Source: an uncultured Lachnospiraceae bacterium
GTDB taxonomy: Bacteria; Bacillota; Clostridia; Lachnospirales; Lachnospiraceae
Length of the DNA: 64,000 nucleotides
NCBI GenBank assembly: GCA_902469965.1
Contig: CABREP010000001.1
Coordinates: 26,807-90,806, forward strand
Reading direction: 5' to 3'
The notes below the pieces were generated by a model. It was not told the origin of the DNA. It did not search any database and saw only the letters and a program-made list of their open reading frames with translations. Of this stretch, positions 3,322 to 64,000 are shown piece after piece. The translations under genes and the position numbers were made by a program. Positions within the stretch are counted from its first letter, which is position 1. Every line of letters starts with the position of its first letter.

Positions 3322-3405
3322 GATTCCATTTTTTGAGAACAGGAAGATTGCAGTTTCCGGCGGAAAGGGATATAATTGTCAGAAGAGGAAAGGAGAAGTG
3401 TGCGT

Positions 3406-11840: not shown

Positions 11841-12494
11841 ATGGCGGAAAAAGAAAAGCAAAAAGAAGTAACGCTCCAGGATCTGCTGGTGCTGGCGGAG
11901 GGCGGCCAGAGCCGGATCCGGCACGCGGTGGGTGTGTATTATGAAAATGGTTTATATACAGAAGTGGATTATAAAGAGGCGGCAAAATGGTATGAGAAGG
12001 CGGCTGCCCAGGGAAACGGAGATTCACAGACCCGCCTGGGGCTTTTTTATGCCCAGGGACTGGGAGTGGAAAAAGACACCGGAAAGGCGGCCGGATATTT
12101 CCGGCAGGGAGCGGAAAATGGAAACAGCAATGCCCAGTACAACCTGGCGCGCTGCTATGAGACAGGAACCGGTGTAAAGGAAGACGCGGGCCAGGCTCTC
12201 TCCTGGTATCTGAAATCCGCAAAGCAGGGAGATCCAAGATCTATGTGCTGTGTGGGGAATTATTATATGCAGGGACTCTGTGTGGAACAGAATTATAAGA
12301 AGGCCTTTCAGTGGTTTGAGAAGGCGGCCGGGGAAGAGATTCCGGCGGCGCAGTATAATCTGGCCATCCTTTATCAGTATGGCTGCGGAGTGGAAAAGGA
12401 CGAAGAAAAGGCGGCGCTCTGGATGGCGAAGGCGGCCCAGCGGAATTTCCCCCTGGCTGTACAGGCGCTCTCCGGAGAAAAAAAGGAGCTGTAA
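11841..12494 (+). CDS. Sel1-like repeat (SLR/TPR) protein
   Basis: At least five units of the form A..WY.KAA.QG...AQ..LG..Y..G.GV.KD are present. Confidence 0.9.
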   Translation: MAEKEKQKEVTLQDLLVLAEGGQSRIRHAVGVYYENGLYTEVDYKEAAKWYEKAAAQGNGDSQTRLGLFYAQGLGVEKDTGKAAGYFRQGAENGNSNAQYNLARCYETGTGVKEDAGQALSWYLKSAKQGDPRSMCCVGNYYMQGLCVEQNYKKAFQWFEKAAGEEIPAAQYNLAILYQYGCGVEKDEEKAALWMAKAAQRNFPLAVQALSGEKKEL

Positions 12495-47253: not shown

Positions 47254-47832
47254 ATGAAAGTTATGGGAAAAATTACAGTAGAAACCTGCGAAATTGAAGG
47301 ATTAAAAGTGATCACACCGGCGGTGTTCGGGGATGAGAGAGGATATTTTATGGAGACTTATAATTATAACGATTATAAGGCTGCCGGTATTGATATGGAG
47401 TTTGTTCAGGATAATCAGTCCAGTTCCAGAAAAGGAGTGCTTCGCGGCCTTCATTTTCAGATCAATTATCCGCAGGATAAGCTGGTGCGCGTAGTGAGCG
47501 GAGAAGTTTTTGACGTGGCTGTGGATCTGCGTCCCGGTTCTGCTACTTTTGGAAAATGGTATGGTGTGCTGCTCTCAGCAGAAAATAAGAAACAGTTCTT
47601 TATCCCGAAGAATTTTGCCCATGGCTTTATTGTGCTGTCTGATTCAGCAGAATTTGCCTACAAATGTACAGATTTTTACCATCCCAACGATGAGGGCGGT
47701 CTGGCCTGGAATGATCCGGAGATCGGTGTAGAATGGCCGATGCCGGAGGGCATGACAAAAGAGGATCTGATCATTTCCGAGAAAGATCAGAAATGGTCAG
47801 GAATCGGAGCGTATAAAAAGGGACAGGAGTAA
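47254..47832 (+). CDS. rfbC: dTDP-4-dehydrorhamnose 3,5-epimerase
   Basis: It has FGDERGYFMETY...GVLRGLHFQ...QDKLVRVVSGEVFDVAVDLR...HGF motifs. The alternative start ATG 47263 has better RBS spacing. Confidence 0.92.
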   Translation: MKVMGKITVETCEIEGLKVITPAVFGDERGYFMETYNYNDYKAAGIDMEFVQDNQSSSRKGVLRGLHFQINYPQDKLVRVVSGEVFDVAVDLRPGSATFGKWYGVLLSAENKKQFFIPKNFAHGFIVLSDSAEFAYKCTDFYHPNDEGGLAWNDPEIGVEWPMPEGMTKEDLIISEKDQKWSGIGAYKKGQE

Positions 47833-47836
47833 TAGC

Positions 47837-49225
47837 ATGTCAAAGAAAAAACTGTGTGTGGGGCTGGGAGCTGTTCTCGTCTGGATTTTGCTGAATATCT
47901 GTATTTTTTCTTATCACGTTCCTGTGAATACACAGTGTCAGCTGAATATGAAGGTGGAGGGGGAACAGAAGAGTATTGTTCAGGTTTACTATCGTCTGAA
48001 TGGGGAATTTACAGAGACAAACAGCGCGGTGCAGAGCTATGAGGGCGGAGGAACAGAGCAGGAGCTGAGTTTTCCTGTCTCATCGGAGGCCGATGCCTTC
48101 CGGATAGACTTTGGAGATCAGCCGGGAGCCTCATATACAGTGAGTGATATCTGTTTTGCGGCGGAAGGCCAGAAGATGGAGAAATGGACGTGGGAACTGG
48201 AGAACCCGATAGAGAAGCTGCAGGTTTCCTATCAGGCTGACAGTGAAGAGGGAAGTTTTCTGGCAGAGACAGAAGGCACAGACCCTCATGTGATCTTTCA
48301 GGCGGAAGCGGGAGATCTGAGAGGTGTTATGGAAGAGGCGGCACAGAAGGAAAACTTCTGGAAAAACTGCATTCTCGGCTTGCTTTTGAACGGCGGAGCA
48401 GTTCTTGTGATTCTGTTTCGGAAGAAATTTTTTGAACTGCCCAGGGAGCTGTATCAGAACCGCAGACTGATCATGAACCTTTCTAAAAATGATTTTAAGA
48501 CGAAGTATGCGGGATCTTATCTGGGAATTGTCTGGGCGTTTATTCAGCCGATCGTTACGATATTAGTATATTGTTTCGTATTTACGGTAGGATTCCGGAG
48601 CGGTGATGTGGCCAATTATCCCTTTGTGCTGTATCTGATTTCCGGTATGGTGCCCTGGCTCTTTTTCCAGGATGCTTTAAATGGAGGCACCAATTCTCTG
48701 ATTGAATACAGTTATCTGGTGAAAAAGGTAGTATTTAAGATCAGTATTCTTCCTATTGTGAAGATTATATCGGCACTTTTTGTCCACCTGTTTTTTATTG
48801 CCTTTTCTCTGGTTGTATTTTCTCTGTACGGATATACGCCTACGATTTATACGGTTCAGATTTTGTATTATTCTGCCTGTACGTTCCTGTTTTCGCTGGC
48901 ACTGGTGTATGCAACCAGCGCTATTGTGATCTTTTTCAGGGATCTGACGCAGATTATCAATATTGTTTTGCAGGTGGGCGTCTGGATGACTCCGATTATG
49001 TGGGATCTGAATATGCTTTCCAATCATCCTCTGCTGATGAAATTGTTCAAGTTCAATCCTATGTATTATATCGTGAATGGATACAGAGATTCCATGCTGG
49101 CTCAGGTCTGGGCGATTGAGCGTTGGAAATGGGGATTATACTTCTGGGTTGTCACCGGCCTGCTGTTCCTTTTGGGTGCGGTGATCTTTAAAAAACTGAA
49201 AATACATTTTGCGGATGTATTGTAG
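47837..49225 (+). CDS. ABC-2 type polysaccharide export permease (Wzm/TagG-like) fused to an N-terminal extension of about 195 aa
   Basis: The C-terminal 260 aa or so is a typical 6-TM ABC-2 permease (DFKTKYAGSYLGIVWAFIQP...). The N-terminus has a TM, a beta-rich domain of about 150 aa and a second TM. Confidence 0.85.
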   Translation: MSKKKLCVGLGAVLVWILLNICIFSYHVPVNTQCQLNMKVEGEQKSIVQVYYRLNGEFTETNSAVQSYEGGGTEQELSFPVSSEADAFRIDFGDQPGASYTVSDICFAAEGQKMEKWTWELENPIEKLQVSYQADSEEGSFLAETEGTDPHVIFQAEAGDLRGVMEEAAQKENFWKNCILGLLLNGGAVLVILFRKKFFELPRELYQNRRLIMNLSKNDFKTKYAGSYLGIVWAFIQPIVTILVYCFVFTVGFRSGDVANYPFVLYLISGMVPWLFFQDALNGGTNSLIEYSYLVKKVVFKISILPIVKIISALFVHLFFIAFSLVVFSLYGYTPTIYTVQILYYSACTFLFSLALVYATSAIVIFFRDLTQIINIVLQVGVWMTPIMWDLNMLSNHPLLMKLFKFNPMYYIVNGYRDSMLAQVWAIERWKWGLYFWVVTGLLFLLGAVIFKKLKIHFADVL

Positions 49226-49235
49226 GAGAGAAAGA

Positions 49236-50528
49236 ATGTCAGAAATTGCAATTCAGGTTGAACACTTAAATAAAATGTATAAACTGTATGATAAGCCCAT
49301 GGACCGGCTGAAAGAGTCCCTGGGTCTGTCAAAACAGAAGAAGTATAAAGAACATTATGCACTGCGGGATGTGTCTTTGTCTGTAAAACGGGGAGAGACT
49401 GTGGGAATCATCGGAACGAATGGTTCAGGAAAATCCACGATCCTGAAGATCATCACAGGTGTATTAAATCCGACAGACGGAAAGGTGGAGGTAAACGGAA
49501 GAATTTCTGCCCTTCTGGAATTGGGCGCGGGCTTTAATATGGAATATTCCGGACTGGAGAATGTTTATCTGAACGGTACTATGATTGGATTTTCCAAAGA
49601 AGAGATTGATGAAAAACTGGAGGATATCCTGAATTTTGCAGATATTGGAGAGTTTATCCATCAGCCCGTGAAGACCTACTCCAGTGGAATGTTTGTCCGT
49701 CTGGCTTTTGCCGTAGCCATTAATATTGAACCGGAAATCCTCATCGTAGATGAGGCACTTTCCGTAGGAGATGTCTTCTTTCAGGCAAAATGCTATCGGA
49801 AATTTGAAGAATTCAAAAAAATGGGGAAAACCATTCTCTTTGTAAGCCACGATCTGGGCAGTATCAGCAAGTACTGTGACAGAGTTATCCTGCTTAATAA
49901 GGGTGTGAAACTGCGGGAAGGCAAGCCGAGAGAAATGATCGATCTCTATAAGAAAGTACTGGTGAATCAGTTTTCGGATGATGAAGAAGAGGAACAGGAA
50001 GAGGAATCCAAAGTAAAAGCACAGAGCCGGGAGCAGGGAGAAGGCAGCTGGAAAGATTATATGCTGATGAATCCGGAAGTTCAGAGTTATGGCGACGGGC
50101 GGGCGGAAATTATTGATTTTGGCGTCTTCGATGAAGAAGATGAGGTGACAAATACAATCTATAAAATGAAGAAATTTTCTATCCGGCTTCGGGTTCGTTT
50201 TCAGGAAGAGATTAAAAATCCGATTCTGGCCTTCAGTCTGAAGGACTTAAAAGGAACGGAACTGACGGGAACCAATACGGTGATTGAAAAGATTGATACC
50301 GGTACAGTGTCAAGCGGAGAGATTGTGGAGATCAGTTTTTCCCAGGTTATGCGGCTGCAGGGGGGGCAGTATCTGCTTCAGCTGGGCTGCACCGGCTTTG
50401 AAAACGGGGATAATTTTGTTGTATATCACCGGCTGTATGATGTGTGCTGCATTCAGGTGATCGGAGATAAAACCACAGTCGGATATTTTGATATGGATTC
50501 AAAGGTTCAATACACGAAAGGAAACTAG
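49236..50528 (+). CDS. Polysaccharide ABC exporter ATP-binding protein (Wzt/TagH-like) with a C-terminal Wzt_C-like carbohydrate-binding domain
   Basis: It has Walker A GTNGSGKST, signature YSSGM and Walker B ILIVDEALSVGD. An E-rich linker is followed by a beta-rich domain of about 160 aa (AEIIDFGVFDEEDE...ILAFSLKDLKGTELTGTNT...). Confidence 0.88.
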   Translation: MSEIAIQVEHLNKMYKLYDKPMDRLKESLGLSKQKKYKEHYALRDVSLSVKRGETVGIIGTNGSGKSTILKIITGVLNPTDGKVEVNGRISALLELGAGFNMEYSGLENVYLNGTMIGFSKEEIDEKLEDILNFADIGEFIHQPVKTYSSGMFVRLAFAVAINIEPEILIVDEALSVGDVFFQAKCYRKFEEFKKMGKTILFVSHDLGSISKYCDRVILLNKGVKLREGKPREMIDLYKKVLVNQFSDDEEEEQEEESKVKAQSREQGEGSWKDYMLMNPEVQSYGDGRAEIIDFGVFDEEDEVTNTIYKMKKFSIRLRVRFQEEIKNPILAFSLKDLKGTELTGTNTVIEKIDTGTVSSGEIVEISFSQVMRLQGGQYLLQLGCTGFENGDNFVVYHRLYDVCCIQVIGDKTTVGYFDMDSKVQYTKGN

Positions 50529-53419: not shown

Positions 53420-54328
53420 ATGGAAAATCAAATTGGAAAAGTAAAGCTGAATTATCAGTTTTACCAGGGATCAGACCAGTACAGTGACGGTGCGATCGAA
53501 GATGAGCTTCTGGAAATGGTAAAAAATGAAACAGACGTGGAAAAAATTCTGCGAACGGATAATCGCTGGCCGGTTTTGTATCATCTGTCTCCAGTGCGGC
53601 AGAATATTGTAGAGTGGTATCCTTTTGAGAAGGAAGCTTCTGTGCTGGAAGTAGGTGCAGGCTGCGGAGCTATTTCAGGGGCACTCTGCCGGAGCGTGAG
53701 GAGAGTTGTGTCCGTGGAACTTTCCAGAAGGCGGTCTCTGATTAATGCGTACCGCAACCGGGAATGTGAAAACCTGGAGATTGTGGTGGGGAATTTTAAT
53801 CAGATTCAGCTGAATGAGAAATTTGATTACATTACCCTGATAGGGGTTCTTGAATATGCCAGATGTTATACGGAAAGCGAAAATCCTTTCTTGAGCTTTG
53901 TGGAAAATCTGAAAAAACTTCTGAAGCCGGGTGGAAAACTTCTGGTTGCCATTGAGAATAAGTTTGGTCTGAAATACTGGGCTGGAGCCAGGGAGGATCA
54001 TACAGGGGTTTTCTTTGACGGGCTGGAGGGATATCACGCGACAGCCAGCGAAGTTCGGACTTTTTCAAGGAAAGAGCTGGATCGGGTTTTCCGGGAAGCG
54101 GGTTTTTCGGAGACAGAGTTTTATTATCCTTTCCCGGATTACAAATTTCCAGTACAGATATTTTCAGATGAGTATCTTCCCAAAGAGGAGGATCTGGCCT
54201 GCAGCAAGGCGTCCTATGATGCCAGCCGGTATTATCTCTTTAATGAGACATCGGTTTATCATGAACTGATCAATGCGGAAGAATTTCCGTTTTTTGCCAA
54301 TTCCTTTTTTGTGGAAGCGAAGGTGTGA
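53420..54328 (+). CDS. Class I SAM-dependent methyltransferase (polysaccharide-locus type)
   Basis: 302 aa with motif I VLEVGAGCGAISGAL, then a D/E-containing post-I stretch (VSVELS) and IGVLEYA. Confidence 0.85.
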   Translation: MENQIGKVKLNYQFYQGSDQYSDGAIEDELLEMVKNETDVEKILRTDNRWPVLYHLSPVRQNIVEWYPFEKEASVLEVGAGCGAISGALCRSVRRVVSVELSRRRSLINAYRNRECENLEIVVGNFNQIQLNEKFDYITLIGVLEYARCYTESENPFLSFVENLKKLLKPGGKLLVAIENKFGLKYWAGAREDHTGVFFDGLEGYHATASEVRTFSRKELDRVFREAGFSETEFYYPFPDYKFPVQIFSDEYLPKEEDLACSKASYDASRYYLFNETSVYHELINAEEFPFFANSFFVEAKV

Positions 54329-54337
54329 GGTGTCCCA

Positions 54338-55729
54338 GTGAAAAAGCTATATTCAAAATTTACAAAAGAAAGAGGAAAAGCTTTTCAGATCGAGACAGCG
54401 ATCTGGGAGAAGGAGGACGGAGAGCGGGAAGTGACAAAACGCCCGCTGTCTGCGGCATCCCGGGGTCATGTGGCAAAAATGTATGAAAATTTCCGCTGGT
54501 TTGAGGAGAGCGGATTTCTTCTTCCCTGCCGTCGGAAAGATGATATGGTTATATTTCCTTTTATTACAGGGAAAAGTTATTACAATTCTCTGATGGAAGC
54601 AATCAGTCGAAAAGACAGGGGGGCTTTTCTTGAAGTTCTGCAAAAATACAAAGCTTTGATGGACAGTCTGTATCCGGAGAGAAGCCCTATGAAAAAAGAT
54701 CCGGAATTTGAGCGTATTTTTGGACTGGCAGATCCGTTTTTGGGGATGGAGGCGGTTGCCAGACTGAATATCGACCTGACGTTTGACAACATTCTGGTTC
54801 AGGGGGAGAAGGTCCAGATTATCGATTACGAATGGATCTTTGATTTCCCGATTCCGATCAAGTATCCGATGTACCGGGCTTTGTATGCCCTGTGCCTCAA
54901 GAACAGAAATCAGTTTATTGATTTTATCCGGGAAGAAGAAATTTATGGAACGATGGGCATTTCCCAGGAAGAATGTGAGCTGTTTTTCCGTATGAACGAA
55001 GCTTTTATGTGGTATGTGGAGGGCGGTTCTGAATCCTATACCAAGATGCTTCAGGCTTACGAGAAACCGGCGCTCAGTCTTGAAATGTCCAAAATGCCTC
55101 AGAACTTCTTCGCCCAGATTTTCTGGGAGACAGGAAGCGGATACTCGGAAGAAGCCTGTGAAAATTATGTAATTTCAGCTACACAAAAAGAAGTTTTTCT
55201 GGAAAAAGATCTGGCTGACTATTCCGGGATCCGGGAGGTGCGGATCGATCCTCTGAATGTTTCTGTCCTGATTGAGAATTTTCAGGTTACAGTGGAAACA
55301 CAGGGACAGGGCATGCGGAAGATTGGACTGGAGGAGATGAGAACGAACCGGAAATGGTTTGTGGGAAGCAATCTGCTGTTTGAATCGGAAGATCCCCAGA
55401 TCCTGATTGCAGTTCCGGAAGGAGAGATCTGGAAAAAGATCCGGGTGGAATACAGAATCTGCCGGAAAGAGATCGAGCGGCTGCGTCCTTATAAAGAAGT
55501 GCTGGACAGCGAATATGCGGAGAGGCAGAAGAGGATGCAGGAAAGGCTGCAGAGTGAACTGGAAGAACAGAACAATCTTTTGAAAGAAAGTATGGATAAG
55601 CTGGAACATCAGGAAAATCTGCTGCGTCTTTACCGGGATAAGCTGCAGTATATTGAAAGTTCTAAAATTTACAGAGGCCTGCTGAAAAATAAAGTGGATA
55701 AGCAGGAACTGTGGGAAGAATTAAAATAA
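54338..55729 (+). CDS. Kinase-like fold protein with a central beta-rich domain and a C-terminal coiled coil (WbdD-like terminator/ruler candidate)
   Basis: 463 aa with a GTG start after a GAGGTG RBS. NIDLTFDN fits the [HN]xDxxxxN Brenner-type motif and IIDYEW fits the IDxE motif of the APH/choline-kinase fold. The last 75 aa or so are heptad-like and charged (ERQKRMQERLQSELEEQNNLLKESMDKLEHQENLLRLYRDKLQ). Confidence 0.55.
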   Translation: MKKLYSKFTKERGKAFQIETAIWEKEDGEREVTKRPLSAASRGHVAKMYENFRWFEESGFLLPCRRKDDMVIFPFITGKSYYNSLMEAISRKDRGAFLEVLQKYKALMDSLYPERSPMKKDPEFERIFGLADPFLGMEAVARLNIDLTFDNILVQGEKVQIIDYEWIFDFPIPIKYPMYRALYALCLKNRNQFIDFIREEEIYGTMGISQEECELFFRMNEAFMWYVEGGSESYTKMLQAYEKPALSLEMSKMPQNFFAQIFWETGSGYSEEACENYVISATQKEVFLEKDLADYSGIREVRIDPLNVSVLIENFQVTVETQGQGMRKIGLEEMRTNRKWFVGSNLLFESEDPQILIAVPEGEIWKKIRVEYRICRKEIERLRPYKEVLDSEYAERQKRMQERLQSELEEQNNLLKESMDKLEHQENLLRLYRDKLQYIESSKIYRGLLKNKVDKQELWEELK

Positions 55730-55754: not shown

Positions 55755-57566
55755 ATGGCCGGAAAAATGAAAACAATTATAAAGAAGCTTCGCCCCGGCT
55801 ATGTGGGCAGGGGGATCCGCTATTTGAAGAAGAATGGCGGAAAAGCTTTCTTTGTGCGGGTATTCACCAATGATACGGCAGTAATACCGTATGAAAAATG
55901 GTTCCGTCTGCATCGGGTCAGGAAAAAGGAACTGGAGCAGCAGCGCAGGGAGAGGTCAGACGGGCTGAAGTTTTCTATTCTTGTTCCGGTCTACCAGACT
56001 CCGGAGAAATTTCTGCGGGAGATGCTGCATTCTGTTCAGGAACAGAGTTACCGGAACTGGGAACTGTGTATTGCAAACGGGAGTCCTGAAAATGCAGGTG
56101 TGCGGGAGATTCTGGAGGAATATCAGAAAAAAGATGGACGGATAAGAGTCAGAAATCTGGAAGAAAACAGGGGAATTGCGGGGAATACCAATGCAGCTCT
56201 TGAAATGGCTTCCGGGGATTTTGCAGCTCTTTTGGATCATGATGATCTTCTGGAACCGGATGCACTCTATGAGATGGCGGCGCTTTTGAAAAAAAATCCG
56301 GACATGGATGCGGTTTATACAGATGAAGATAAGGTGAACGGTCAGGGAACTTCTTTTTTTCAGCCTCATTTTAAGCCGGATTTTAATCCGGATCTGCTGC
56401 GCTCTAACAATTATATCTGCCATTTCTTTGCGGTTCGCACAGATCTGGCAAGACGGACCGGAGGATTCCGAAGGGAGTATGAGGGGGCGCAGGATTACGA
56501 TTACATTTTTCGGTGTACGGAGCAGTCTTCCCGGATCGGTCATGTGCCCCGGATCCTGTATCACTGGAGAACGCACAGCCAGTCTACGGCGGAAAATCCG
56601 GAAAGCAAGCAGTATGCTTTTGAGGCGGGAGCCCGGGCAATAGAATCCCATCTGAAACGTCAGGGGGTGAAGGCTTCTGTGAACATGCGGGAGAATCCGG
56701 GTTTTTACCGGGTCTCTTATGACGTGCAGGGAAGTCCGCTGGTGTCAGTGCTGATTCCCAATAAGGATCAGAAGGAGAAACTTCAGGTCTGTGTGGAATC
56801 CATCCTTGCGAAGACTGCCTATGAGAATTATGAGATTCTGATTATTGAGAACAACAGTGTGACTCCGGAGATCTTTGCCTATTATAAAGAGCTGGAAAAG
56901 AATCCAAGAATTCAGATTCTGCGGTGGGAGAGGGCATTTAATTATTCTGCGATTAACAATTATGGGGCAGAGAAGGCCAGGGGAGAGTATCTTCTTTTGC
57001 TGAATAATGATGTGGAGATCCTGCAGGAAGGCTGGATGAAGGAACTGGTGGGAAACTGTCAGAGAGAAGAAGTGGGAGCAGTTGGTGTAAAACTGTATTA
57101 TCCCGACGGAACGATCCAACATGCCGGGACAATCGTGGGACTGGGCGGCGTAGCGGGGCATGCTTTTGCAGGATTTTCGGAAGAGCAGGGAAGTTATATG
57201 CACCGGGCTGCGATACAGATGGATTATAGCGCCGTTACAGCAGCCTGCATGATGGTAAGAAAAGAGGTCTTTTTTCAGGCAGGAGGTCTGGAGGAAAAAC
57301 TGGAGGTTGCCTTTAATGACGTAGATTTCTGTCTTAAGCTCCGAAAACTGGGTTATCTGATCGTCTATGATCCGGATGTGAAGCTGTACCATTATGAGTC
57401 TGCGACCAGAGGCGAGGAAGATAATCCGGAGAAGAAGGCCAGATTTCAGAGAGAAATAGATTATATGAAACAGCAGTGGCAGGAAATTCTGGAGATAGGG
57501 GATCCCTGTTATAATCCAAATCTGACACTGCTTGCGGGAGATTATTCCCAGCGATGGGGAGGTTAA
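55755..57566 (+). CDS. Dual-domain family 2 glycosyltransferase
   Basis: 603 aa. GT2 module 1 is FSILVPVYQTP...LDHDD. GT2 module 2 is VSVLIPNKDQ...LNNDVE...QHAG. Confidence 0.9.
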   Translation: MAGKMKTIIKKLRPGYVGRGIRYLKKNGGKAFFVRVFTNDTAVIPYEKWFRLHRVRKKELEQQRRERSDGLKFSILVPVYQTPEKFLREMLHSVQEQSYRNWELCIANGSPENAGVREILEEYQKKDGRIRVRNLEENRGIAGNTNAALEMASGDFAALLDHDDLLEPDALYEMAALLKKNPDMDAVYTDEDKVNGQGTSFFQPHFKPDFNPDLLRSNNYICHFFAVRTDLARRTGGFRREYEGAQDYDYIFRCTEQSSRIGHVPRILYHWRTHSQSTAENPESKQYAFEAGARAIESHLKRQGVKASVNMRENPGFYRVSYDVQGSPLVSVLIPNKDQKEKLQVCVESILAKTAYENYEILIIENNSVTPEIFAYYKELEKNPRIQILRWERAFNYSAINNYGAEKARGEYLLLLNNDVEILQEGWMKELVGNCQREEVGAVGVKLYYPDGTIQHAGTIVGLGGVAGHAFAGFSEEQGSYMHRAAIQMDYSAVTAACMMVRKEVFFQAGGLEEKLEVAFNDVDFCLKLRKLGYLIVYDPDVKLYHYESATRGEEDNPEKKARFQREIDYMKQQWQEILEIGDPCYNPNLTLLAGDYSQRWGG

Positions 57567-57570
57567 AGCT

Positions 57571-59340
57571 ATGAAAAAACTGTCCTCTTATCAGGTGAAA
57601 CGGGGGCTTCAGTATTTCCGGAAGCACGGGGTGAAGCAGTTTGTCCGCCGCTTCGGGGAAAAGACAGGAATTGTGGAGACTGCATATCCGGGCTGGTTTG
57701 AAAAGCACAGAACTTCGGAGCGGGAATTGGCAGAACAGCGGGAGAAGTGTTTTCGCGATCCGCTTCTTTTCAGCTTCGTGGTTCCTGCCTATAATACGCC
57801 GGAACGTTATCTGAGAGAGCTGATCAATTCGCTTCTGGCGCAGACGTATGCCGGCTGGGAACTCTGTCTGGCAGATGGAAGTCCGGATGGAGATGTGGTC
57901 TGCGGCGTGGTGAAAGAGTATGCGGACGCGAGGATCCACTACCGTCATCTGGAGGAAAATTATGGGATTTCCGGTAATACAAATGCGGCGCTGGAGATGG
58001 CAGCGGGGGATTTCATTGTACTGGCGGATCACGATGACCTTCTGGAGCCGGACGCCCTGTTCCGAATGATGGAAGTGCTGGAGCAGGATCCGGGAACCGA
58101 TGTGATCTATACAGATGAGGGGAAGATCACCATGGATGGGAGCCGGATTTTTGATCCCCATTTTAAGTCGGACTTTAACTGGTGGCTGCTGCGCAGCAAC
58201 AATTATATCTGTCATATTTTTGCGGTGCGCGCATCCATAGGAAAACGGGTGGGCGGATTCTGCAGGGAATATGACGGCGCTCAGGACTATGATTATATCC
58301 TGAAATGCTGCGAGAAGGCGGAGAAGATTGTCCATATTCCCCGGATCCTGTATCACTGGAGGGCACATCCGGGTTCTACTGCGGGAGATCCGGCCAGTAA
58401 AAGTTATGCCTACGAGGCGGGCTGCAGAGCGCTGAACGATCATTATCAGAGAGCCGGAATCCGGGCGCGGGCAGAGTATACCGGTCTTCCGGGCAGATAC
58501 CGCACCCGTTTTGAACTGAAGGAGACACCGGAAATCTGCGTACTGCTTACGTATACCGGAAAGGAACAGGAACTGCTTTCCAGTGTGAAGGCACTTCGGG
58601 AAGGAACCGGCTATCCCTGCTGGAACTTGTGGATTCTGGCCGGAAACCGACAGAAGATTTCTCCGGAGACACTGGAAAAGCTGGGAGAAGTCACTTTCTT
58701 TCAGAGGGAATGTCATTCTCTGCCGGAACTGTGGAACCGGGCAGCAGAAGAATGTGGCGGAAGTTACCTCCTCTTTTTAAATGGGGCGTACCGGCCGGTG
58801 CACTGCGACTGGATTCGGGAACTTCTGGGTCAGTGTGTACAGAAGAATGTGGGGGCGGCGGGAGCAAAGCTGCTCTACAGCGACCGGAAGATCTGTCAGG
58901 CCGGTGTCTGCGTGGGGATGTATGCAGTGGCGGGAAATGAAGCGGAAGGCGCAAAGTACCTGGATGAAGGCTGCAATGCCTGGAATATTTCCAACCGAAA
59001 TGTCAGTGCGGTGACAGATGTGGTGATCACACCGAGAGAAGTCTGGGAGGCGCTGGGCGGAGTAAAGACGGAATACAAAAGTTATCTGGCTATGACGGAT
59101 TACTGTCTGCGGGCCGGACAGCTGGGATATGGGATCGTGTATACGCCCTGGGCTGAACTGAAGAGTGTGCAGAAATTCCGAAAAGACAGACAGCGCTGGG
59201 AGAAGCGGGAAGGAGAACTGTTCCGGAAAGAGTGGACAGAGTTCCTGGATCGGGGAGATCCGTTTTATTCGCCGAATCTGTCGCTGGACGGACCGGATTT
59301 TCGTTATTCCGGTTCTGATGAAAAATACGGGGAAAGATAA
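57571..59340 (+). CDS. Dual-domain GT2 paralog whose second module lacks the DxD-type motif
   Basis: Module 1 is intact (FSFVVPAYNTP...ADHDD). Module 2 reads LLFLNGAYRP where paralogs have LNNDVE, and the QHAG equivalent reads CQAG. ATG 57571 follows a GGGGAGG RBS. Confidence 0.85.
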   Translation: MKKLSSYQVKRGLQYFRKHGVKQFVRRFGEKTGIVETAYPGWFEKHRTSERELAEQREKCFRDPLLFSFVVPAYNTPERYLRELINSLLAQTYAGWELCLADGSPDGDVVCGVVKEYADARIHYRHLEENYGISGNTNAALEMAAGDFIVLADHDDLLEPDALFRMMEVLEQDPGTDVIYTDEGKITMDGSRIFDPHFKSDFNWWLLRSNNYICHIFAVRASIGKRVGGFCREYDGAQDYDYILKCCEKAEKIVHIPRILYHWRAHPGSTAGDPASKSYAYEAGCRALNDHYQRAGIRARAEYTGLPGRYRTRFELKETPEICVLLTYTGKEQELLSSVKALREGTGYPCWNLWILAGNRQKISPETLEKLGEVTFFQRECHSLPELWNRAAEECGGSYLLFLNGAYRPVHCDWIRELLGQCVQKNVGAAGAKLLYSDRKICQAGVCVGMYAVAGNEAEGAKYLDEGCNAWNISNRNVSAVTDVVITPREVWEALGGVKTEYKSYLAMTDYCLRAGQLGYGIVYTPWAELKSVQKFRKDRQRWEKREGELFRKEWTEFLDRGDPFYSPNLSLDGPDFRYSGSDEKYGER

Positions 59341-59353
59341 AGGAAACAGTAGT

Positions 59354-60313
59354 ATGAAAAAAGCGGCGGTGATAATTCCCAATTACAATGGGGCCGGATA
59401 TCTGGGACCCTGCCTGGACAGCCTTATGAGGCAGAGTGAGAAGTCTTTTTCTGTGATCGTGGTGGACAATGGTTCCACGGACGGGAGCAGGGAACTGATA
59501 CGGGAAAAATATCCCTGGGCAGAGCTTCTCTGTCTGGAGGAAAATACGGGATTCTGCGGGGCGGTAAACCGGGGAATCCAGGCGGCAGAAGAACCGTATG
59601 TAATACTGCTGAACAATGATACGGAAGCAGAGCCTGATTTTATCAGGGAACTGCTGGAAGGGATCGGGCGCCATCGGAGAGCTTTTGCATGCGGGGCGAA
59701 GATGCTGCAGGCACACAGCCCGGAGCTTTTGGATGACGCCGGAGATTTTTACAGTGCCCTTGGCTGGGCGGCGGCCCGGGGCAAGGGGAAGCCGGAAGCA
59801 GAGTACAGCCGGGAAGAGAAGATTTTTTCGGCCTGTGCGGGGGCGGCTATCTACCGCAGGAAGGTGCTTCTCGGCCTCGGGCTCTTTGATGAAGAACATT
59901 TTGCCTATCTGGAGGATCTGGATATTTGCTATCGGGCCAGACTGTACGGTTATGAGAACTGGTATCTCCCGAAAGCCCGGGTGCGTCATGTGGGGAGCGG
60001 AACCAGCGGATCCCGCTATAATCTGTTCAAGGTGCGATACTCTTCCAGGAATAACATTTACCTGATCTGGAAAAATATGCCCCTGTTTCAGATCCTGTTG
60101 AATCTGCCGTTTCTTCTGGCAGGGTTTGGCGCCAAATTCCTTTTTTTCGCGGGAAAAGGATTCGGAAAGGAGTATCTGGCCGGCATCCGAAATGGTTTTC
60201 AGCTGTGTCGGAAATCCGAAAAAAAGACGAAATTTACCTGGAAACGGCTTCTGGTATACAGCAGGATTCAGCTGGAACTGTGGAAGAATCTGTGCTGCAC
60301 GCTTCGCCGCTGA
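59354..60313 (+). CDS. Family 2 glycosyltransferase (single domain)
   Basis: About 319 aa with AAVIIPNYNGAGYL...VVDNGSTDGS...LLNNDTE motifs. ATG 59354 was chosen on domain completeness. Confidence 0.85.
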   Translation: MKKAAVIIPNYNGAGYLGPCLDSLMRQSEKSFSVIVVDNGSTDGSRELIREKYPWAELLCLEENTGFCGAVNRGIQAAEEPYVILLNNDTEAEPDFIRELLEGIGRHRRAFACGAKMLQAHSPELLDDAGDFYSALGWAAARGKGKPEAEYSREEKIFSACAGAAIYRRKVLLGLGLFDEEHFAYLEDLDICYRARLYGYENWYLPKARVRHVGSGTSGSRYNLFKVRYSSRNNIYLIWKNMPLFQILLNLPFLLAGFGAKFLFFAGKGFGKEYLAGIRNGFQLCRKSEKKTKFTWKRLLVYSRIQLELWKNLCCTLRR

Positions 60314-60408: not shown

Positions 60409-61821
60409 GTGACGAGCGTGATAAAGGATAATCAGAAGTACTTTAACCGTCTGCACGTGGTTCTGGATGCGGCAGTGATCGCCTTTTCCTACTGGCTGAG
60501 CTGGGTGATCAAGTTCAGCGGTATTTTTGTAAAAAATTCAGTGCGGACTTTAAGCTTTGAGCAGTATATGCTGGCATTGATTTTTATCATTCCGGGGTAT
60601 CTGATCTTATATTCAGCCTGCAGTCTTTACACGCCAAAGCGGGTGCAGGGCAGAAGGCTGGAATTTGCAAATATTGCAAAGGCGAATGCCATAGGCGTTC
60701 TTCTGGTGATCGTGGCTCTTTACATTTTTAAGGAGCTGGATTATTCCCGGAGCATGCTGGTGATCTTCTTCGGCATTAATACGGTTCTCTGTGAATGTCT
60801 TCGGATGGGGATCCGCCTGATCCTCAGAGATATGAGAAAACGAGGGCTGAATCAGAAACATATCCTGCTGGTCGGCTACAGCCGGGCGGCAGAGGAATAT
60901 ATTGACAGAATCCTGGCGAATCCTCAGTGGGGTTACACGGTGAGAGGGATTCTGGACGATTCCGTGGAAGCCGGGACGGTTTACCGGGGGATTAAGGTAT
61001 TAGGCTGTGTGGACAATCTGATGGTGATCCTTCCGGAGAACAAGCTGGATGAGATCGTGATAACACTGGGGCTTCATCAGTACGCGAGACTGGAAGAAAT
61101 TGTGGCCCTCTGCGAGAAATCCGGAGGGCATACCAAATTTATCCCGGATTATACAAACATCATTCCAACGAAACCTTACACAGAAGATCTTCTGGGACTT
61201 CCTGTTATCAATATCCGTTACGTTCCTCTGACCAATACGTTTTCAGCTGCGGTGAAGCGGGCGATGGATATTTTTGGAGCCATTGTGGCAATTATTCTGT
61301 TTTCTCCGGTCATGCTGATTTTTGCGGTTCTGATCAAGGCAACTTCAAAGGGGCCTCTGATTTATAAACAGACCCGGGTGGGGCTTCACAATAAGCCTTT
61401 TGAGATGTACAAATTCCGTTCTATGGAGGTGCAGCCGGAGGCGGAGGAGCGAAAGGCCTGGACTGTAAAGAACGATCCGAGAGTGACCAGTGTGGGAAAA
61501 TTTATGCGGAAAACAAGTATTGATGAGCTTCCGCAGCTTTTTAATATTTTAAAGGGTGATATGAGCCTGGTGGGACCAAGACCCGAGCGGCCTTTCTTTG
61601 TGGAAAAATTCCGGGAAGAGATTCCGAGATATATGGTGAAGCATCAGGTGCGTCCGGGACTGACCGGATGGGCACAGATCCACGGATACCGGGGCGATAC
61701 TTCGATCAGGAAGCGCATCGAGTATGATCTCTATTATATTGAGAACTGGACCGTAGGCCTGGATATCAAGATTTTGTTTCTTACCTTTTTTAAAGGGTTT
61801 GTAAATAAAAATGCATATTAG
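60409..61821 (+). CDS. Polyprenyl-phosphate hexose-1-phosphate transferase (WbaP/EpsL-type initiating sugar transferase)
   Basis: 470 aa with 4-5 N-terminal TM segments and the C-terminal bacterial sugar transferase motif PLIYKQTRVG...FEMYKFRSM...DELPQLFNILKGDMSLVGPRP. Confidence 0.9.
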   Translation: MTSVIKDNQKYFNRLHVVLDAAVIAFSYWLSWVIKFSGIFVKNSVRTLSFEQYMLALIFIIPGYLILYSACSLYTPKRVQGRRLEFANIAKANAIGVLLVIVALYIFKELDYSRSMLVIFFGINTVLCECLRMGIRLILRDMRKRGLNQKHILLVGYSRAAEEYIDRILANPQWGYTVRGILDDSVEAGTVYRGIKVLGCVDNLMVILPENKLDEIVITLGLHQYARLEEIVALCEKSGGHTKFIPDYTNIIPTKPYTEDLLGLPVINIRYVPLTNTFSAAVKRAMDIFGAIVAIILFSPVMLIFAVLIKATSKGPLIYKQTRVGLHNKPFEMYKFRSMEVQPEAEERKAWTVKNDPRVTSVGKFMRKTSIDELPQLFNILKGDMSLVGPRPERPFFVEKFREEIPRYMVKHQVRPGLTGWAQIHGYRGDTSIRKRIEYDLYYIENWTVGLDIKILFLTFFKGFVNKNAY

Positions 61822-61838: not shown

Positions 61839-62987
61839 ATGAGCAAAGAACAGAAAAAAATGAATAAACTGCAGAGGAAGCGCAGAAGAAGAAGGATCTT
61901 TTTTGGCCTTGAAGTAGTGGTTTTGCTGGTACTGATCGGCTGCCTGTTCGTTTACGCCAAACTGAATGACGCCCTGGGAAAGATTGATATTACGCCTACG
62001 GACGATTCCAAGATTCAGACAAATGATGATCTGCAGCTGAGCAAAGAAGTGCTGACCGGATATCATAATATCCTGCTGGTCGGTGTGGATCACAGATCCG
62101 GAGAAGATGATACCGGTTCTCTGGATGCCTGCAACAGCGACACCATGATCCTGGCAAGTATTAACAATGACACGAAAGAGATTCGCCTTGTTTCTCTTTT
62201 CCGCGATACGCTCTTGAATGTGGGAAACAGGGAGTATGACAAGGCAAACTCGGCTTACTGGAATGGGCCGGAGGCACTTTTGTCTATGTTTAATCAGAAT
62301 CTGGATCTGAATATCCATGATTATGTGGCTGTGGATTTCCAGGCGGTAGCGGATACGGTAGATCTTCTGGGAGGAATTGACCTGGAACTGACAGCGGAGG
62401 AAATTACTCATCTGAATAACTACTGTAAAGATATGGTGGTGCTCCACGATCAGGTGGAAGGCAAAGAGTTTGATCCTCTGCCGGAGCAGGATGGCACGTA
62501 TCATCTGGATGGACTGCAGGCTTTGGGTTACTGCCGGATCCGTTATACCAGCGGAAGTGATTACCGCCGGACCCTCCGTCAGAGAACCGTAATTATGAAA
62601 GTTGCAGAAAAAGCAAAAACAGCAGGCGTAGGCCCGCTGATGAATGTGGTGGATGAAGTATTCCCGCTGGTGAAGACAAATATCAGCAAGGATACGATCC
62701 TGAAACTGGGAATGTCCATGCTGGACTATGAGATTGTGGATCAGACCGGGTTCCCCTTCGATCATCTTGAGGGAGATGTGAAAGTACCTCAGAGAAAAAA
62801 TGCACTGGATGTTATTGTTCCTGTGACTCTGGAAACCAATGTAATCAAACTGCATGAGTATCTGTTCCCGGATCAGGAATATATACCGTCCAAAGAATTA
62901 AAGGAGTACAGTTCAGATCTGACATATCTGTCCGGATTTGGGGAGGATGATATTCCCAAGCGGTCGGCAGACTGGGATGTAAGATAA
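61839..62987 (+). CDS. LytR-CpsA-Psr (LCP) family glycopolymer-to-peptidoglycan ligase
   Basis: It has an N-terminal TM and NILLVGVDHR...SDTMILASIN...VSLFRDT...INSAY-like motifs. Confidence 0.9.
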   Translation: MSKEQKKMNKLQRKRRRRRIFFGLEVVVLLVLIGCLFVYAKLNDALGKIDITPTDDSKIQTNDDLQLSKEVLTGYHNILLVGVDHRSGEDDTGSLDACNSDTMILASINNDTKEIRLVSLFRDTLLNVGNREYDKANSAYWNGPEALLSMFNQNLDLNIHDYVAVDFQAVADTVDLLGGIDLELTAEEITHLNNYCKDMVVLHDQVEGKEFDPLPEQDGTYHLDGLQALGYCRIRYTSGSDYRRTLRQRTVIMKVAEKAKTAGVGPLMNVVDEVFPLVKTNISKDTILKLGMSMLDYEIVDQTGFPFDHLEGDVKVPQRKNALDVIVPVTLETNVIKLHEYLFPDQEYIPSKELKEYSSDLTYLSGFGEDDIPKRSADWDVR

Positions 62988-63972: not shown

Positions 63973-64000
63973 GAAAATCAATTCATCTTTTTTTAAAAGA

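Follow-up and report, generated by a model that had tools for sequence, protein, structure and literature searches.

The glycopolymer locus in the stretch of DNA analysed here (64,000 nt, hereafter the window) raises the question of what two adjoining genes, ORF A and ORF B, do in an ABC-transporter-dependent pathway of a Gram-positive host. The first-pass annotation had read the pair, a 302-aa class I SAM methyltransferase followed 9 nt later by a 463-aa kinase-like protein, as a split chain terminator of the WbdD kind, and the open reading frames and predicted folds agree with that layout. We consider it likely that ORF A and ORF B are a two-polypeptide version of the N-terminal methyltransferase-kinase chain terminator of Klebsiella pneumoniae ORF6-O7. 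This reading is based on the predicted folds, the conserved catalytic residues, the homology to a characterised terminator, natural fusions and synteny.

The locus opens with rmlC, immediately 3' of cdaA/cdaR (the genes 5' of it encode CdaA, with its DAC domain, and a YbbR-domain protein), and its features are collected in Table 1. The parts that had been listed for it before (Wzm, a CBM-bearing Wzt, multi-module glycosyltransferases, the methyltransferase, the kinase-like protein and an LCP enzyme) were all found to be present. Together, rmlC and the WsaF-like modules indicate a rhamnan-type polymer resembling the O7 antigen. The three-module glycosyltransferase is the probable polymerase, and its position matches in the related loci L001 and L002. 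When PDB entries were ranked for the C-terminal domain of Wzt, 2R5O, which we take to be the Wzt CBM of E. coli O9a, came out best (E 2.1e-6), ahead of 8DKY and 6O14. The third downstream GT2 gene was called mechanically and overlaps the preceding gene by 175 nt, so its real start is probably further 3'. The GTG start of ORF B agrees with the N-termini of its homologues (MKKIYSKFTKER), and the Shine-Dalgarno-like element overlapping the ORF A stop suggests that the two genes may be translationally coupled.

Table 1. Features of the glycopolymer locus, in window coordinates.
Feature	Position	Strand	Evidence or remark
rmlC (dTDP-4-dehydrorhamnose 3,5-epimerase)	47254..47832	+	PF00908 E 2e-73; TIGR01221 E 3.5e-76, above cut-off
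Wzm ABC-2 permease, 462 aa	47837..49225	+	PF01061 on residues 212-420
Wzt ATPase with C-terminal carbohydrate-binding domain Wzt_C (residues 292-429)	49209..50528	+	PF00005 E 4e-24; PF14524 E 1.1e-39
Three-module glycosyltransferase, GT2-GT2-WsaF-like rhamnosyltransferase, 959 aa	50531..53410	+	PF00535 x2; PF21374 WsaF_N E 2e-64; PF22772 WsaF_C E 4e-52
ORF A, putative terminator methyltransferase, 302 aa, ATG start	53420..54328	+	class I methyltransferase Pfam matches
SD-like GAGGTG	54327..54332	+	read from sequence; overlaps ORF A stop, 5 nt before ORF B GTG
ORF B, 463 aa, GTG start	54338..55729	+	9-nt gap after ORF A
ORF B residues 1-245, protein-kinase-like (APH/Mph-like) alpha/beta domain	54338..55072	+	AF2 pLDDT >90; Foldseek
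ORF B catalytic residues	K34 54437-54439; D146 54773-54775; N151 54788-54790; D163 54824-54826	+	invariant in homologues
ORF B residues 252-378, 11-strand beta-sandwich	55091..55471	+	stand-alone AF2 pLDDT 94.5, pTM 0.87
ORF B residues 379-441, 63-residue continuous helix	55472..55660	+	AF2 secondary structure
ORF B residues 437-463, conserved C-terminal motif YIExTKxYxxLLxxKVD	55646..55726	+	alignment conservation
GT2 glycosyltransferase, two modules, 603 aa	55755..57566	+	PF00535 x2, E 4e-50
GT2 glycosyltransferase, 602 aa	57532..59340	+	PF00535 E 1e-26
Third downstream GT2 glycosyltransferase	59165..60313	+	PF00535 E 6e-28
WcaJ-type polyprenyl-phosphate hexose-1-phosphate transferase (initiating PGT)	60409..61821	+	TIGR03023 E 5e-150, above cut-off; PF02397 E 9e-74
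LCP-family glycopolymer transferase, candidate ligase to peptidoglycan	61839..62987	+	PF03816 E 1.3e-31; TIGR00350 E 2e-26, above cut-off

A recent study described the ORF6^O7-N terminator of K. pneumoniae O7 (Kelly et al., J Biol Chem 2024, PMC11231755). Its domains follow the order methyltransferase, cryptic APH-like kinase, Ig-like 'CBM', coiled coil and optional GT modules. The in vitro product was 3-O-(methyl-phosphate)-Rha, formed on the terminal rhamnose, and kinase activity was lost in the D441A mutant. The authors set it apart from WbdD, stating that the enzyme pairs of O3 and O7 are dissimilar both in sequence and in predicted structure (PMC11231755).

Several class I methyltransferase Pfam models matched ORF A (about E 1e-10), which contains VLEVGAGCGAISG and has an intact SAM motif (E77-V-G79-A-G81-C-G83) corresponding to EIGAGCG (G91/G93) of ORF6-O7. 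ORF A was 40% identical to the O7-type protein P0254 over its full length (302 columns, E 2e-60), 37-42% identical to the transcribed ORF6-O7 orthologues, that of K. pneumoniae O7 included, and, compared with the N-terminal half of P0098, a natural fusion, 57% identical. When ORF A and ORF B were concatenated, they aligned colinearly with ORF6-O7 orthologues across the junction. The first-pass annotation had proposed to check where the methyltransferase clusters; ORF A groups with a proven terminal-cap methyltransferase, and not with the sugar-nucleotide or internal-residue types.

ORF B matched no Pfam or NCBIfam family (E <= 0.01), and its fold was assessed from an AlphaFold2 (AF2) model (mean pLDDT 91.2). 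Foldseek related the N-terminal domain with probability 1.0 to APH(3')-Ia, to macrolide phosphotransferases including Mph(E), and to RioK1 (E 2e-6 to 1e-4); identity to the APH/Mph structures was 11-15% and the TM-score about 0.5, and PDB searches with the ORF B sequence (E <= 10) and its family profile gave no match to these antibiotic kinases. The kinase signature noticed earlier, consisting of EVTKRP (K34), NIDLTFDN (D146, N151) and IIDYEW (D163-W166), is borne out by the modelled fold. Moreover, K34, D146, N151, D163, Y164, E165 and W166 were invariant among 39 homologues (25-67% identical), which shows that the motifs are not due to chance.

A comparison of profiles connected this domain to the O7 type. 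The ORF B profile, with the methyltransferase left out, matched that of the O7 type across the full length of the kinase domain (hhalign 92.9%, E 3.6e-7, 198 columns), with IDLTFDN placed on FDAxPQN and IIDYEW on LIDxEW, so that D146 fell on the catalytic D441 of ORF6-O7 and N151 on N446. K34 aligned to a Y/H of the O7 type, and the invariant K345 of the O7 type to I18 of ORF B. The match ended at residue 232, before the beta-sandwich. HMM-to-sequence searches of the kinase gave no significant match in the transcribed O7 rows, a template that was OCR-noisy and truncated, and the profile-profile comparison of clean sequences is the test of kinase homology to rely on. On these sequence comparisons, the nearest known relative of ORF A/ORF B is the ORF6-O7 terminator rather than WbdD.

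The likeness to WbdD as a family, which had been proposed for the pair, did not hold. WbdD chains were absent from PDB searches with ORF A (E <= 1), ORF B (E <= 10), the ORF B family profile and the O7-type profile, and also from the best 50 Foldseek matches listed for ORF B. Membership of the WbdD family was therefore rejected, there being no detectable sequence relationship in either domain (PDB 4AZS and related entries), and so was a WbdD-type single polypeptide, given two ORFs and a helix of just 63 residues. What remains alike is the outline: WbdD (E. coli O9a / K. pneumoniae O3; PMC3482155) also has an N-terminal methyltransferase, a kinase after it and then a helical region, and its methyl-phosphate cap stops chain growth and is recognised by the CBM of Wzt. 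Unlike ORF A/ORF B, WbdD is a single chain without a beta-sandwich and acts on a mannan and not a rhamnan. It has a long trimeric coiled coil, a C-terminal amphipathic membrane helix and a WbdA-recruitment region.

The central beta-rich domain expected for ORF B appeared in the full-length AF2 model as an all-beta domain at about 255-377, with R302-x-D304-P305, N337 and D352-P353-Q354 invariant. Foldseek gave no PDB match for it at E <= 1e-3. The N-terminal insert of the window's own Wzm is homologous to it (hhalign 93.4%, E 2.5e-7, 106 columns); this insert lies in an extension of about 200 aa preceding the ABC-2 core, for which hydropathy gave a TM helix (residues 4-31), a soluble beta domain (about 27-175) and then another TM helix (174-196). 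We regard the beta-sandwich as a candidate glycan-binding module.

The region that follows had been annotated as a coiled coil of about 75 aa. The long helix, followed in the AF2 model by two short ones (443-455 and 458-462), agrees with that view in part, but it shows only modest heptad periodicity (p about 0.03), with 50% of the a/d positions hydrophobic versus 24% of the others. It is a candidate coiled-coil spacer or ruler, and the length of this region differs widely among homologues. The coiled coil of WbdD is much longer; with this difference and the weak heptad signal, a role as ruler is uncertain. At the C-terminal end, the conserved motif has an amphipathic, basic character with a net charge of +3 to +4, L449 is nearly invariant, and the strict motif occurred in 15 stand-alone relatives versus none of the 19 GT-fused forms. 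From its sequence, it is a candidate docking or membrane-association element.

Synteny and architecture were counted in 82 related loci. The kinase stood alone in 53, was fused to GT modules in 14, to the methyltransferase in 10, and to both in five; 15 of the 82 loci thus encode a natural methyltransferase-kinase fusion, in which the kinase directly follows the methyltransferase, and 19 a GT-fused terminator. The split, two-polypeptide arrangement was counted in 63 of the 82. Wherever methyltransferase and GT modules share a protein, the kinase domain lies in between, and in the GT-fused relatives a heptad-periodic spacer (p <= 0.007) separates the kinase from the GT modules. The methyltransferase was fused to or adjoined the kinase gene in 78/79 loci, and a CBM-bearing Wzt (Wzt_C) was encoded upstream in 72/74, answering the question of co-occurrence that had been raised for it. 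One subgroup of relatives has a degenerate methyltransferase and an intact kinase. Clustered at 50% identity, the ORF B family comes to about 4,000 clusters, and Pfam has no model for it.

Taken side by side, the window's pair and ORF6-O7 share, in the same order, a class I methyltransferase, an APH-like kinase of about 225-245 aa, a beta domain, a helical or coiled-coil region and optional GTs, with the E-x-G-A-G-C-G SAM motif, D-x4-N and (I/L)ID-x-EW in register. Both go with a CBM-bearing Wzt and a rhamnose-containing polymer, which in the window is predicted, and stand-alone and GT-fused forms occur within the same family; the beta-sandwich is alike by position only, sitting where the Ig-like 'CBM' sits. 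The differences are that the window has two polypeptides, a Gram-positive Lachnospiraceae-type host, and a PGT and LCP ligase instead of WecA and WaaL. Furthermore, the kinship of the kinases is distant and detected profile-to-profile only, the invariant lysine is on another strand (K34 versus K345), the ORF B subfamily has its conserved C-terminal YIExTKxYxxLL motif, Wzm bears an additional copy of the beta-sandwich, and the polymerase modules are of the WsaF/GT2 type and reside on separate proteins.

We infer the cap chemistry, the acceptor position, the association of ORF A with ORF B, the ruler function, the recognition by the CBM and the ligation by LCP as follows. The WcaJ-type PGT would prime undecaprenyl-phosphate, on which the GT2/WsaF-type glycosyltransferases would assemble a rhamnose-containing polymer in the cytoplasm. 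ORF B, using ATP and K34, D146, N151 and D163, would phosphorylate a hydroxyl on the non-reducing terminal sugar, and ORF A would then use SAM to methylate the terminal phosphate, blocking elongation. The beta-sandwich would probably bind the polymer, and the long helix and C-terminal motif would probably oligomerise and dock the terminator on the polymerase or the membrane, setting a distance that may influence chain length. The C-terminal domain of Wzt would read the methyl-phosphate cap, so that Wzm/Wzt would export capped chains only, and the LCP enzyme would probably join the exported polymer to peptidoglycan. The cap could also be phosphate alone, O-methyl alone, or one on another sugar or position.

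The polymer may have a different destination: it is possible, though less likely than not, that the same terminator serves a protein-linked (S-layer-type), lipid-anchored or capsule-like polymer that is not attached by LCP. Only 8/82 related loci carried an LCP gene within 10 kb, so LCP wall attachment is not general for the ORF B family; the precedents WsaF and WsaE are enzymes of S-layer glycans; and the window stops at 64000, with genes further downstream outside its view. Against this, the PGT and LCP genes of the window follow directly on the same strand, consecutive and 17 nt apart, and the scanned parts of the window yielded neither an O-oligosaccharyltransferase nor an O-antigen-ligase-type gene.

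WsaE, of the S-layer glycan of Geobacillus stearothermophilus NRS 2004/3a, also bears on the chemistry. It consists of a methyltransferase and two rhamnosyltransferase domains and makes a 2-O-methyl cap, a kinase not being described (PMC2943079). It resembles the present system in its Gram-positive ABC-transporter-dependent rhamnan pathway, its methyltransferase terminator beside wzm/wzt, its partner WsaF, and the covalent union of terminator and polymerising GT modules, as in the GT-fused loci. It differs in that its glycan is transferred to S-layer protein via an oligosaccharyltransferase and not by LCP, and its description sets the WsaE type apart from the window, where the methyltransferase has an ORF of its own and a kinase comes after it. 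With this Gram-positive precedent, the WsaF-like modules of the locus and a lysine position unlike that of the O7 type, ORF A might O-methylate the terminal rhamnose directly, as do the methyltransferase domain of WsaE and O8-type WbdD, with ORF B a pseudokinase scaffold or ruler that positions it. We find this unlikely: the invariance of four catalytic residues across 25-67% identity is unexpected for a pseudokinase, the closest methyltransferase to ORF A has been shown to methylate phosphate, the kinase partner is near-obligatory, and the subgroup with a degenerate methyltransferase suggests that the kinase is the indispensable activity.

Still less probable is a decoration of internal residues, in which phosphate, methyl-phosphate, or separate phosphate and O-methyl groups would be placed on the repeat unit instead of ending the chain. 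Sequence alone does not fix the acceptor position, and the beta-sandwich could bind internal polymer, but the characterised homologue modifies terminal Rha, the fused forms carry a helical spacer between terminator and GTs, which is a hallmark of terminators, and the co-occurring Wzt is of a kind of which every characterised member recognises a terminal cap (PMC11231755). That ORF B is an APH/Mph-type antibiotic or metabolite kinase placed in a glycan locus by chance, as its top Foldseek matches to aminoglycoside and macrolide phosphotransferases might suggest, is scarcely credible, since the likeness (APH(3')-Ia 4FEW/4EJ7, Mph(E) 7W1A and AmiN 6SUL) is at the level of fold, APH enzymes are without its beta-sandwich and long helix, its substrate class (a polymer terminus) would differ, its pairing with a methyltransferase is obligatory, its synteny and covalent fusions to methyltransferase and glycosyltransferases are conserved, and membership of the APH family (PF01636) was rejected on the glycan-assembly context and the lack of any Pfam APH, NCBIfam resistance-family (E <= 0.01) or sequence-level PDB match.

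The first-pass annotation knew of no such system characterised in Clostridia. Its novelty is smaller than was assumed, as this type of module, with its cryptic kinase and beta 'CBM', was characterised in 2024 (PMC11231755). What does appear to be undescribed is the Gram-positive setting, split and LCP-linked; the orthologues named in that paper are proteobacterial and cyanobacterial only, and to date the methyl-phosphate cap has been characterised on no polymers other than Gram-negative O antigens.

The preferred reading, a two-polypeptide terminator of the ORF6-O7 type, suggests that, in many gut Firmicutes, rhamnose polymers receive a methyl-phosphate cap ahead of export. As a tentative extension, abundant Lachnospiraceae of the gut and other Firmicutes (Blautia, Roseburia, Murimonas, Fusicatenibacter, Lacrimispora and others) may make methyl-phosphate-capped, rhamnose-rich polymers that are LCP-ligated to the wall where the locus encodes LCP. 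Two traits would then be elaborations specific to Gram-positives: a split terminator whose kinase-ruler docks by its C-terminal peptide, and one glycan-binding beta-sandwich module on both faces of the membrane, in the cytoplasmic terminator and in an extracytoplasmic Wzm insert that could keep the emerging chain in place for the LCP enzyme. If true, the terminal methyl-phosphate epitope and cap-and-export quality control would reach from enterobacterial O antigens to surface polysaccharides of dominant human-gut Firmicutes, and a testable, 31P-NMR-visible cap would be expected on commensal surface glycans of immunological interest. Thousands of 'hypothetical proteins' and adjoining 'class I SAM-dependent methyltransferase' genes would gain an annotation. 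The split, fused and GT-fused terminators would provide a natural series for the coupling of polymerisation, termination and chain length, and the beta-sandwich common to terminator and Wzm would offer a lead on glycan hand-over in Gram-positive bacteria.

ORF A, which encodes the methyltransferase (MTase), and the adjoining ORF B lie exactly where the first-pass annotation had placed them, and the neighbouring genes that it claimed were all recovered by Pfam and NCBIfam searches of the window. The 9-nt gap between the two ORFs includes, as read from the sequence, an SD-like GAGGTG. Along with ORF A and ORF B the locus comprises rmlC, the ABC exporter genes for Wzm and Wzt, the latter with a carbohydrate-binding Wzt_C domain (PF14524, E 1e-39), a 959-aa GT2-GT2-WsaF protein, three more GT2 proteins, a WcaJ-type phosphoglycosyltransferase (PGT) and an LCP protein. 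The first gene of the locus is rmlC, immediately 3' of cdaA/cdaR, and the remaining window is housekeeping. Coordinates are collected in the table.

Coordinates of the features discussed (window positions unless a related locus is named)
Feature	Sequence	Position	Remarks
BspA-type leucine-rich-repeat protein	window	3376-4431	unrelated to the locus
Second stand-alone class I methyltransferase	window	11086-11838	unrelated to the locus
Sel1-repeat protein	window	11841-12494	unrelated to the locus
rmlC	window	47254-47832	
Wzm N-terminal extension	window	47837-48430	Wzm residues 1-198
ORF A	window	53420-54328	302 aa, ATG start
ORF A/ORF B junction	window	54326-54340	TGA plus three codons
ORF B	window	54338-55729	463 aa, GTG start
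ORF B I18	window	54389-54391	
ORF B K34	window	54437-54439	
ORF B alpha/beta N-lobe, helical C-lobe	ORF B	residues 1-245	AlphaFold2
ORF B all-beta domain	ORF B	residues 255-377	AlphaFold2
ORF B continuous 63-residue helix, then two short helices	ORF B	residues 379-441	AlphaFold2
GT2 ORF	window	57532-59340	
GT2 ORF	window	59165-60313	real start probably further downstream
Kinase-GT or MTase-kinase-GT polypeptide	L048	9923-13102	
MTase-kinase-GT fusion, degenerate MTase	L069	9209-13111	~1300 aa
MTase-kinase-GT fusion, degenerate MTase	L070	9194-13102	~1300 aa
MTase-kinase-GT fusion, degenerate MTase	L075	9173-13096	~1300 aa
MTase-kinase-GT fusion, degenerate MTase	L079	9200-13105	~1300 aa
Extended Wzm	L002	3385-4773	
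Extended Wzm	L026	6343-7740	
Extended Wzm	L040	6339-7760	
Extended Wzm	L076	6255-7676	

Three further observations concern the window as a whole. Its only dTDP-rhamnose gene in the locus is rmlC; no rmlA, rmlB or rmlD was seen in the window, and the remaining genes of the pathway must therefore be elsewhere in the genome (in the related locus L001, rmlA and a dehydratase/epimerase gene lie 5' of rmlC). As called mechanically, two of the GT2 ORFs, with TTG and GTG starts, share 175 nt. The three unrelated genes listed in the table are found in the first 13 kb, amid housekeeping genes.

ORF A and ORF B share a reading frame, with just a TGA and three codons (GVP) between them. Stop-codon read-through, or a recent split of a single gene, was considered and rejected, since the two genes share a frame in only 12 of the 63 split loci, a number below that expected by chance; the in-frame arrangement is therefore a coincidence.

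Several class I SAM-methyltransferase models in Pfam match ORF A (~E 1e-10). ORF B had zero matches in Pfam and NCBIfam, and no kinase was found when it was compared with PDB sequences, either as a single sequence or as a 39-member profile HMM. Its kinase fold came to light only via structure prediction and Foldseek, the check that the first-pass annotation had proposed. The AlphaFold2 model built from the 39-homologue alignment (mean pLDDT 91.2) matched aminoglycoside 3'-phosphotransferases, macrolide 2'-phosphotransferases and a Rio kinase in the PDB with probability 1.0 and E-values of 2e-6 to 1e-4, at 11-15% identity and a TM-score of ~0.5 normalised by target length. The motif residues flagged earlier are real, since K34, D146, N151 and D163-Y164-E165-W166 are invariant among the 39 homologues (25-67% identity), and K7, R12, T20, H44, G78 and R180 are likewise invariant. 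The kinase fold is therefore genuine, of the small-molecule-kinase (APH-like) type and with its catalytic set intact.

The first-pass annotation described the pair as WbdD-like, after the MTase-kinase terminator of E. coli O9a, but homology places it in another family. WbdD was not found in PDB sequence searches with ORF A (E <= 1), ORF B (E <= 10) or the ORF B family profile, nor was it among the best 50 Foldseek matches listed for ORF B, and it was dropped as the family of these proteins. A profile of proteins of the Klebsiella pneumoniae O7 type did not find WbdD in the PDB either; the best PDB neighbours of this profile, 7WZG and 8RDL, are those of ORF A.

The O7 chain terminator itself, ORF6-O7, has, in this order, an N-terminal methyltransferase, an APH-like kinase, an Ig-like 'CBM', a coiled coil and two rhamnosyl-GT2 modules, and it attaches methyl-phosphate to the terminal rhamnose at O3 (Kelly et al. 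2024, PMC11231755). According to the same authors the O7 and O3 (WbdD) enzyme pairs are unlike in sequence and predicted structure, the orthologues given are from alpha- and gamma-proteobacteria and cyanobacteria only, and GT modules are present in some orthologues and missing from others (PMC11231755). ORF A and ORF B together follow this order for the methyltransferase and the kinase, and a beta-sandwich and a long helix stand where ORF6-O7 has its 'CBM' and coiled coil.

Two homology tests bear on this likeness. The first used five rows of SI Figure 9 of PMC11231755, transcribed from OCR text and covering residues ~1-450. ORF A aligned with all five at 37-42% identity over ~235 residues (E 1e-34 to 1e-52), and concatenated ORF A and ORF B aligned colinearly with the Pseudomonas orthologue through the junction. 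A profile-profile comparison was needed for the kinase because hmmsearch of the transcribed rows with the Firmicute kinase HMM was not significant; a profile of 83 related-locus kinase domains matched the O7 kinase N-lobe in these rows (hhalign 83%, E 9e-6), with D146 on D441, the essential kinase residue of ORF6-O7, and N151 on N446. The best 120 matches listed in a homologue search with ORF A were close Firmicute MTases only, none of them proteobacterial.

Because of the OCR noise in these rows, the second test used a clean O7-type set from the protein database, collected with the transcribed K. pneumoniae sequence as query. The query did not retrieve the Klebsiella O7 protein itself (best match 54% identity), and it yielded thousands of O7-type proteins of 540-770 aa, with ~50% identity over all 442 query residues, from sources that include Pseudomonas syringae, Nitrosospira, Methylococcales and Leptospira. 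These proteins are annotated as methyltransferases only, some as 'ubiquinone biosynthesis methylase'. In their alignment D447, N452, D465, E467 and W468 are invariant, within 'FFDAxPQNIII...LIDxEW'. One of them, P0254, shares 40% identity with ORF A over the full length of ORF A (E 2e-60), and an MTase-free ORF B alignment matched the O7-type profile over 198 columns spanning the whole kinase domain, with every motif in register (hhalign 92.9%, E 3.6e-7). On these comparisons we assign ORF A and ORF B to the ORF6-O7-N terminator lineage, as a split member, and not to the WbdD family.

The two groups differ in the placement of their invariant lysine. K34, on the third strand ('V.K') of ORF B, stands opposite Y/H in O7-type proteins, whereas the O7-type lysine ('CKET', K345 of P0254) stands opposite I18, on the preceding strand. 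It is possible that the ATP-binding lysine has moved from one strand to another between the two lineages.

Residues 252-378 of ORF B, modelled alone, form an 11-strand beta-sandwich (pLDDT 94.5) in the position of the Ig-like 'CBM' of ORF6-O7, with R302, D304, P305, N337 and D352-P353-Q354 invariant. Comparison with PDB structures gave no neighbour at E <= 1e-3, and the label 'CBM' is therefore a positional and functional guess for this domain. Of the heptad-like coiled coil of ~75 aa proposed in the first-pass annotation, the long helix was recovered by AlphaFold2, but its heptad signal is modest (spectral power at a 3.5-3.6 residue period, p ~0.03), the a/d positions of the best register being 50% hydrophobic versus 24% elsewhere. 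The post-kinase region varies from 61 to 264 residues among stand-alone forms. The ORF B subfamily ends in a conserved, basic and amphipathic motif, YIExTKxYxxLLxxKVD, which is shared by 15 stand-alone relatives and by 0 of 19 forms fused to glycosyltransferases (GTs), and is also missing from many distant stand-alone forms. On this distribution the motif might be a docking peptide that takes the place of a covalent link to the polymerase, a suggestion we make tentatively.

A homologous domain was found in the exporter. The Wzm of the window has an N-terminal extension of ~200 aa, consisting of a TM helix, a soluble domain of ~150 aa and a second TM helix; the hydrophobic segments span residues 4-31 and 174-196, and by the positive-inside rule the insert is probably extracytoplasmic. 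It matches the ORF B beta-sandwich over 106 columns (hhalign 93.4%, E 2.5e-7), with QVYY..EFTE, RIDF and TDPHVI in Wzm paired with QIF..GYSEE, RIDP and EDPQI in ORF B. Extended Wzm proteins occur in a minority of related loci only. A beta module common to terminator and permease would fit a polymer-binding role.

The ORF B family is large: an exhaustive HMMER search gave 3,968 clusters (50% identity) at E <= 1e-3, of which 1,724 reach E <= 1e-30. No model in Pfam or NCBIfam covers the family, whose members are labelled 'hypothetical protein'. Related loci were sampled with a 12-sequence alignment as query and one genome per species, giving 266 relatives; all counts refer to 82 loci (80 fetched from these relatives and two from contig look-ups), whose ORFs were scored against the window's own proteins. 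The kinase stands alone, with or without the beta domain and helix, in 53 loci, and is found as kinase-GT in 14, MTase-kinase in 10 and MTase-kinase-GT in 5. An MTase is fused to the kinase or lies immediately upstream in 78 of the 79 loci with enough upstream sequence; in the natural fusion P0098 the kinase directly follows a domain that shares 57% identity with ORF A across 297 residues. The co-occurrence with a CBM-bearing Wzt that the first-pass annotation anticipated was borne out: 72 of 74 loci have such a gene on the same strand, upstream of the kinase. GT-fused forms, single polypeptides of 1,050-1,880 aa in L048, L075 and 17 other loci, carry GT2 and GT1-type (Glyco_trans_1_4) modules after a clearly heptad-periodic spacer of ~80 residues. 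This spacer-then-GT layout is that of ORF6-O7, and the polypeptides are a Gram-positive counterpart of the all-in-one design of ORF6-O7 and WbbB. The carriers are mostly Lachnospiraceae (Blautia, Roseburia, Murimonas, Fusicatenibacter, Lacrimispora, Lactonifactor), and also include Eubacterium barkeri, Tepidibacter, Metasolibacillus, one Erysipelotrichaceae isolate and a small number of MAGs from Gram-negatives. Carriers available in culture are Blautia producta DSM 2950 (L003), Murimonas intestini DSM 26524 (L006), Anaerobium acetethylicum GluBS11 (L007), Roseburia inulinivorans DSM 16841 (L015) and Eubacterium barkeri VPI 5359 (L018).

The chain termination and export coupling proposed in the first-pass annotation are supported by homology to a biochemically characterised terminator (ORF6-O7-N), gene fusions and synteny, alongside the folds and the conserved catalytic residues. 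In the mechanism with the best support, a polymer that contains rhamnose would be extended on undecaprenyl phosphate by the GT2/WsaF enzymes, the ORF B kinase would phosphorylate the non-reducing terminal sugar and ORF A would methylate the phosphate, so that the presumed cap, a methyl-phosphate on the terminal sugar, halts elongation. The natural fusions and the coupling-type gene junction suggest that ORF A and ORF B may form a complex. ORF B could serve as a ruler. The cap would be read by the Wzt CBM, with putative specificity for it (the closest solved relative of this CBM is 2R5O, which we take to be the E. coli O9a CBM), and the capped chain exported by Wzm/Wzt. In the window's organism the LCP enzyme would then probably attach the chain to peptidoglycan. 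A destination other than an LCP-linked wall polysaccharide is quite possible, and only 8 of the 82 loci have an LCP gene within 10 kb. Such a destination does not affect the assignment of ORF A and ORF B as a terminator. Of the other locus genes, rmlC was found in 43 of the 82, WsaF-like modules in 26 and a PGT in 23.

A first alternative is an O-methyl cap like that made by WsaE of the Geobacillus S-layer glycan, with ORF B as a pseudokinase. Two findings speak against it: the catalytic residues of ORF B are invariant, and a subgroup of fusions keeps the kinase while its MTase motif is degenerate. In this subgroup (L069, L070, L075 and L079, from Lachnoclostridium, Enterocloster, Hungatella and Lacrimispora) the SAM loop reads, for example, LQVGSDFGALTG where LEVGAGCGAISG is expected, the LIGVLEY and EDH motifs are missing and there is no Pfam MTase match. 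The MTase-like domain is probably inactive, and these systems may therefore cap with phosphate alone. Internal decoration of the polymer is also disfavoured as an alternative to terminal capping, given that a CBM-bearing Wzt is a near-obligatory partner and that the characterised homologue acts on the terminal residue. An antibiotic kinase is excluded by the genomic context and the fusions.

The degree of novelty implied in the first-pass annotation was too high, as this type of terminator module was already described in 2024 for a Gram-negative O antigen. The literature searched gave no account of a terminator in Gram-positives that caps with methyl-phosphate. What is new is the wide occurrence of this terminator type in Gram-positive gut Clostridia and the predominance of the split architecture, together with the C-terminal motif specific to the ORF B subfamily, a lysine placement unlike that of the O7 type, the presence in Wzm of a second beta-sandwich copy, and the linkage of the terminator with genes for a PGT and an LCP ligase.
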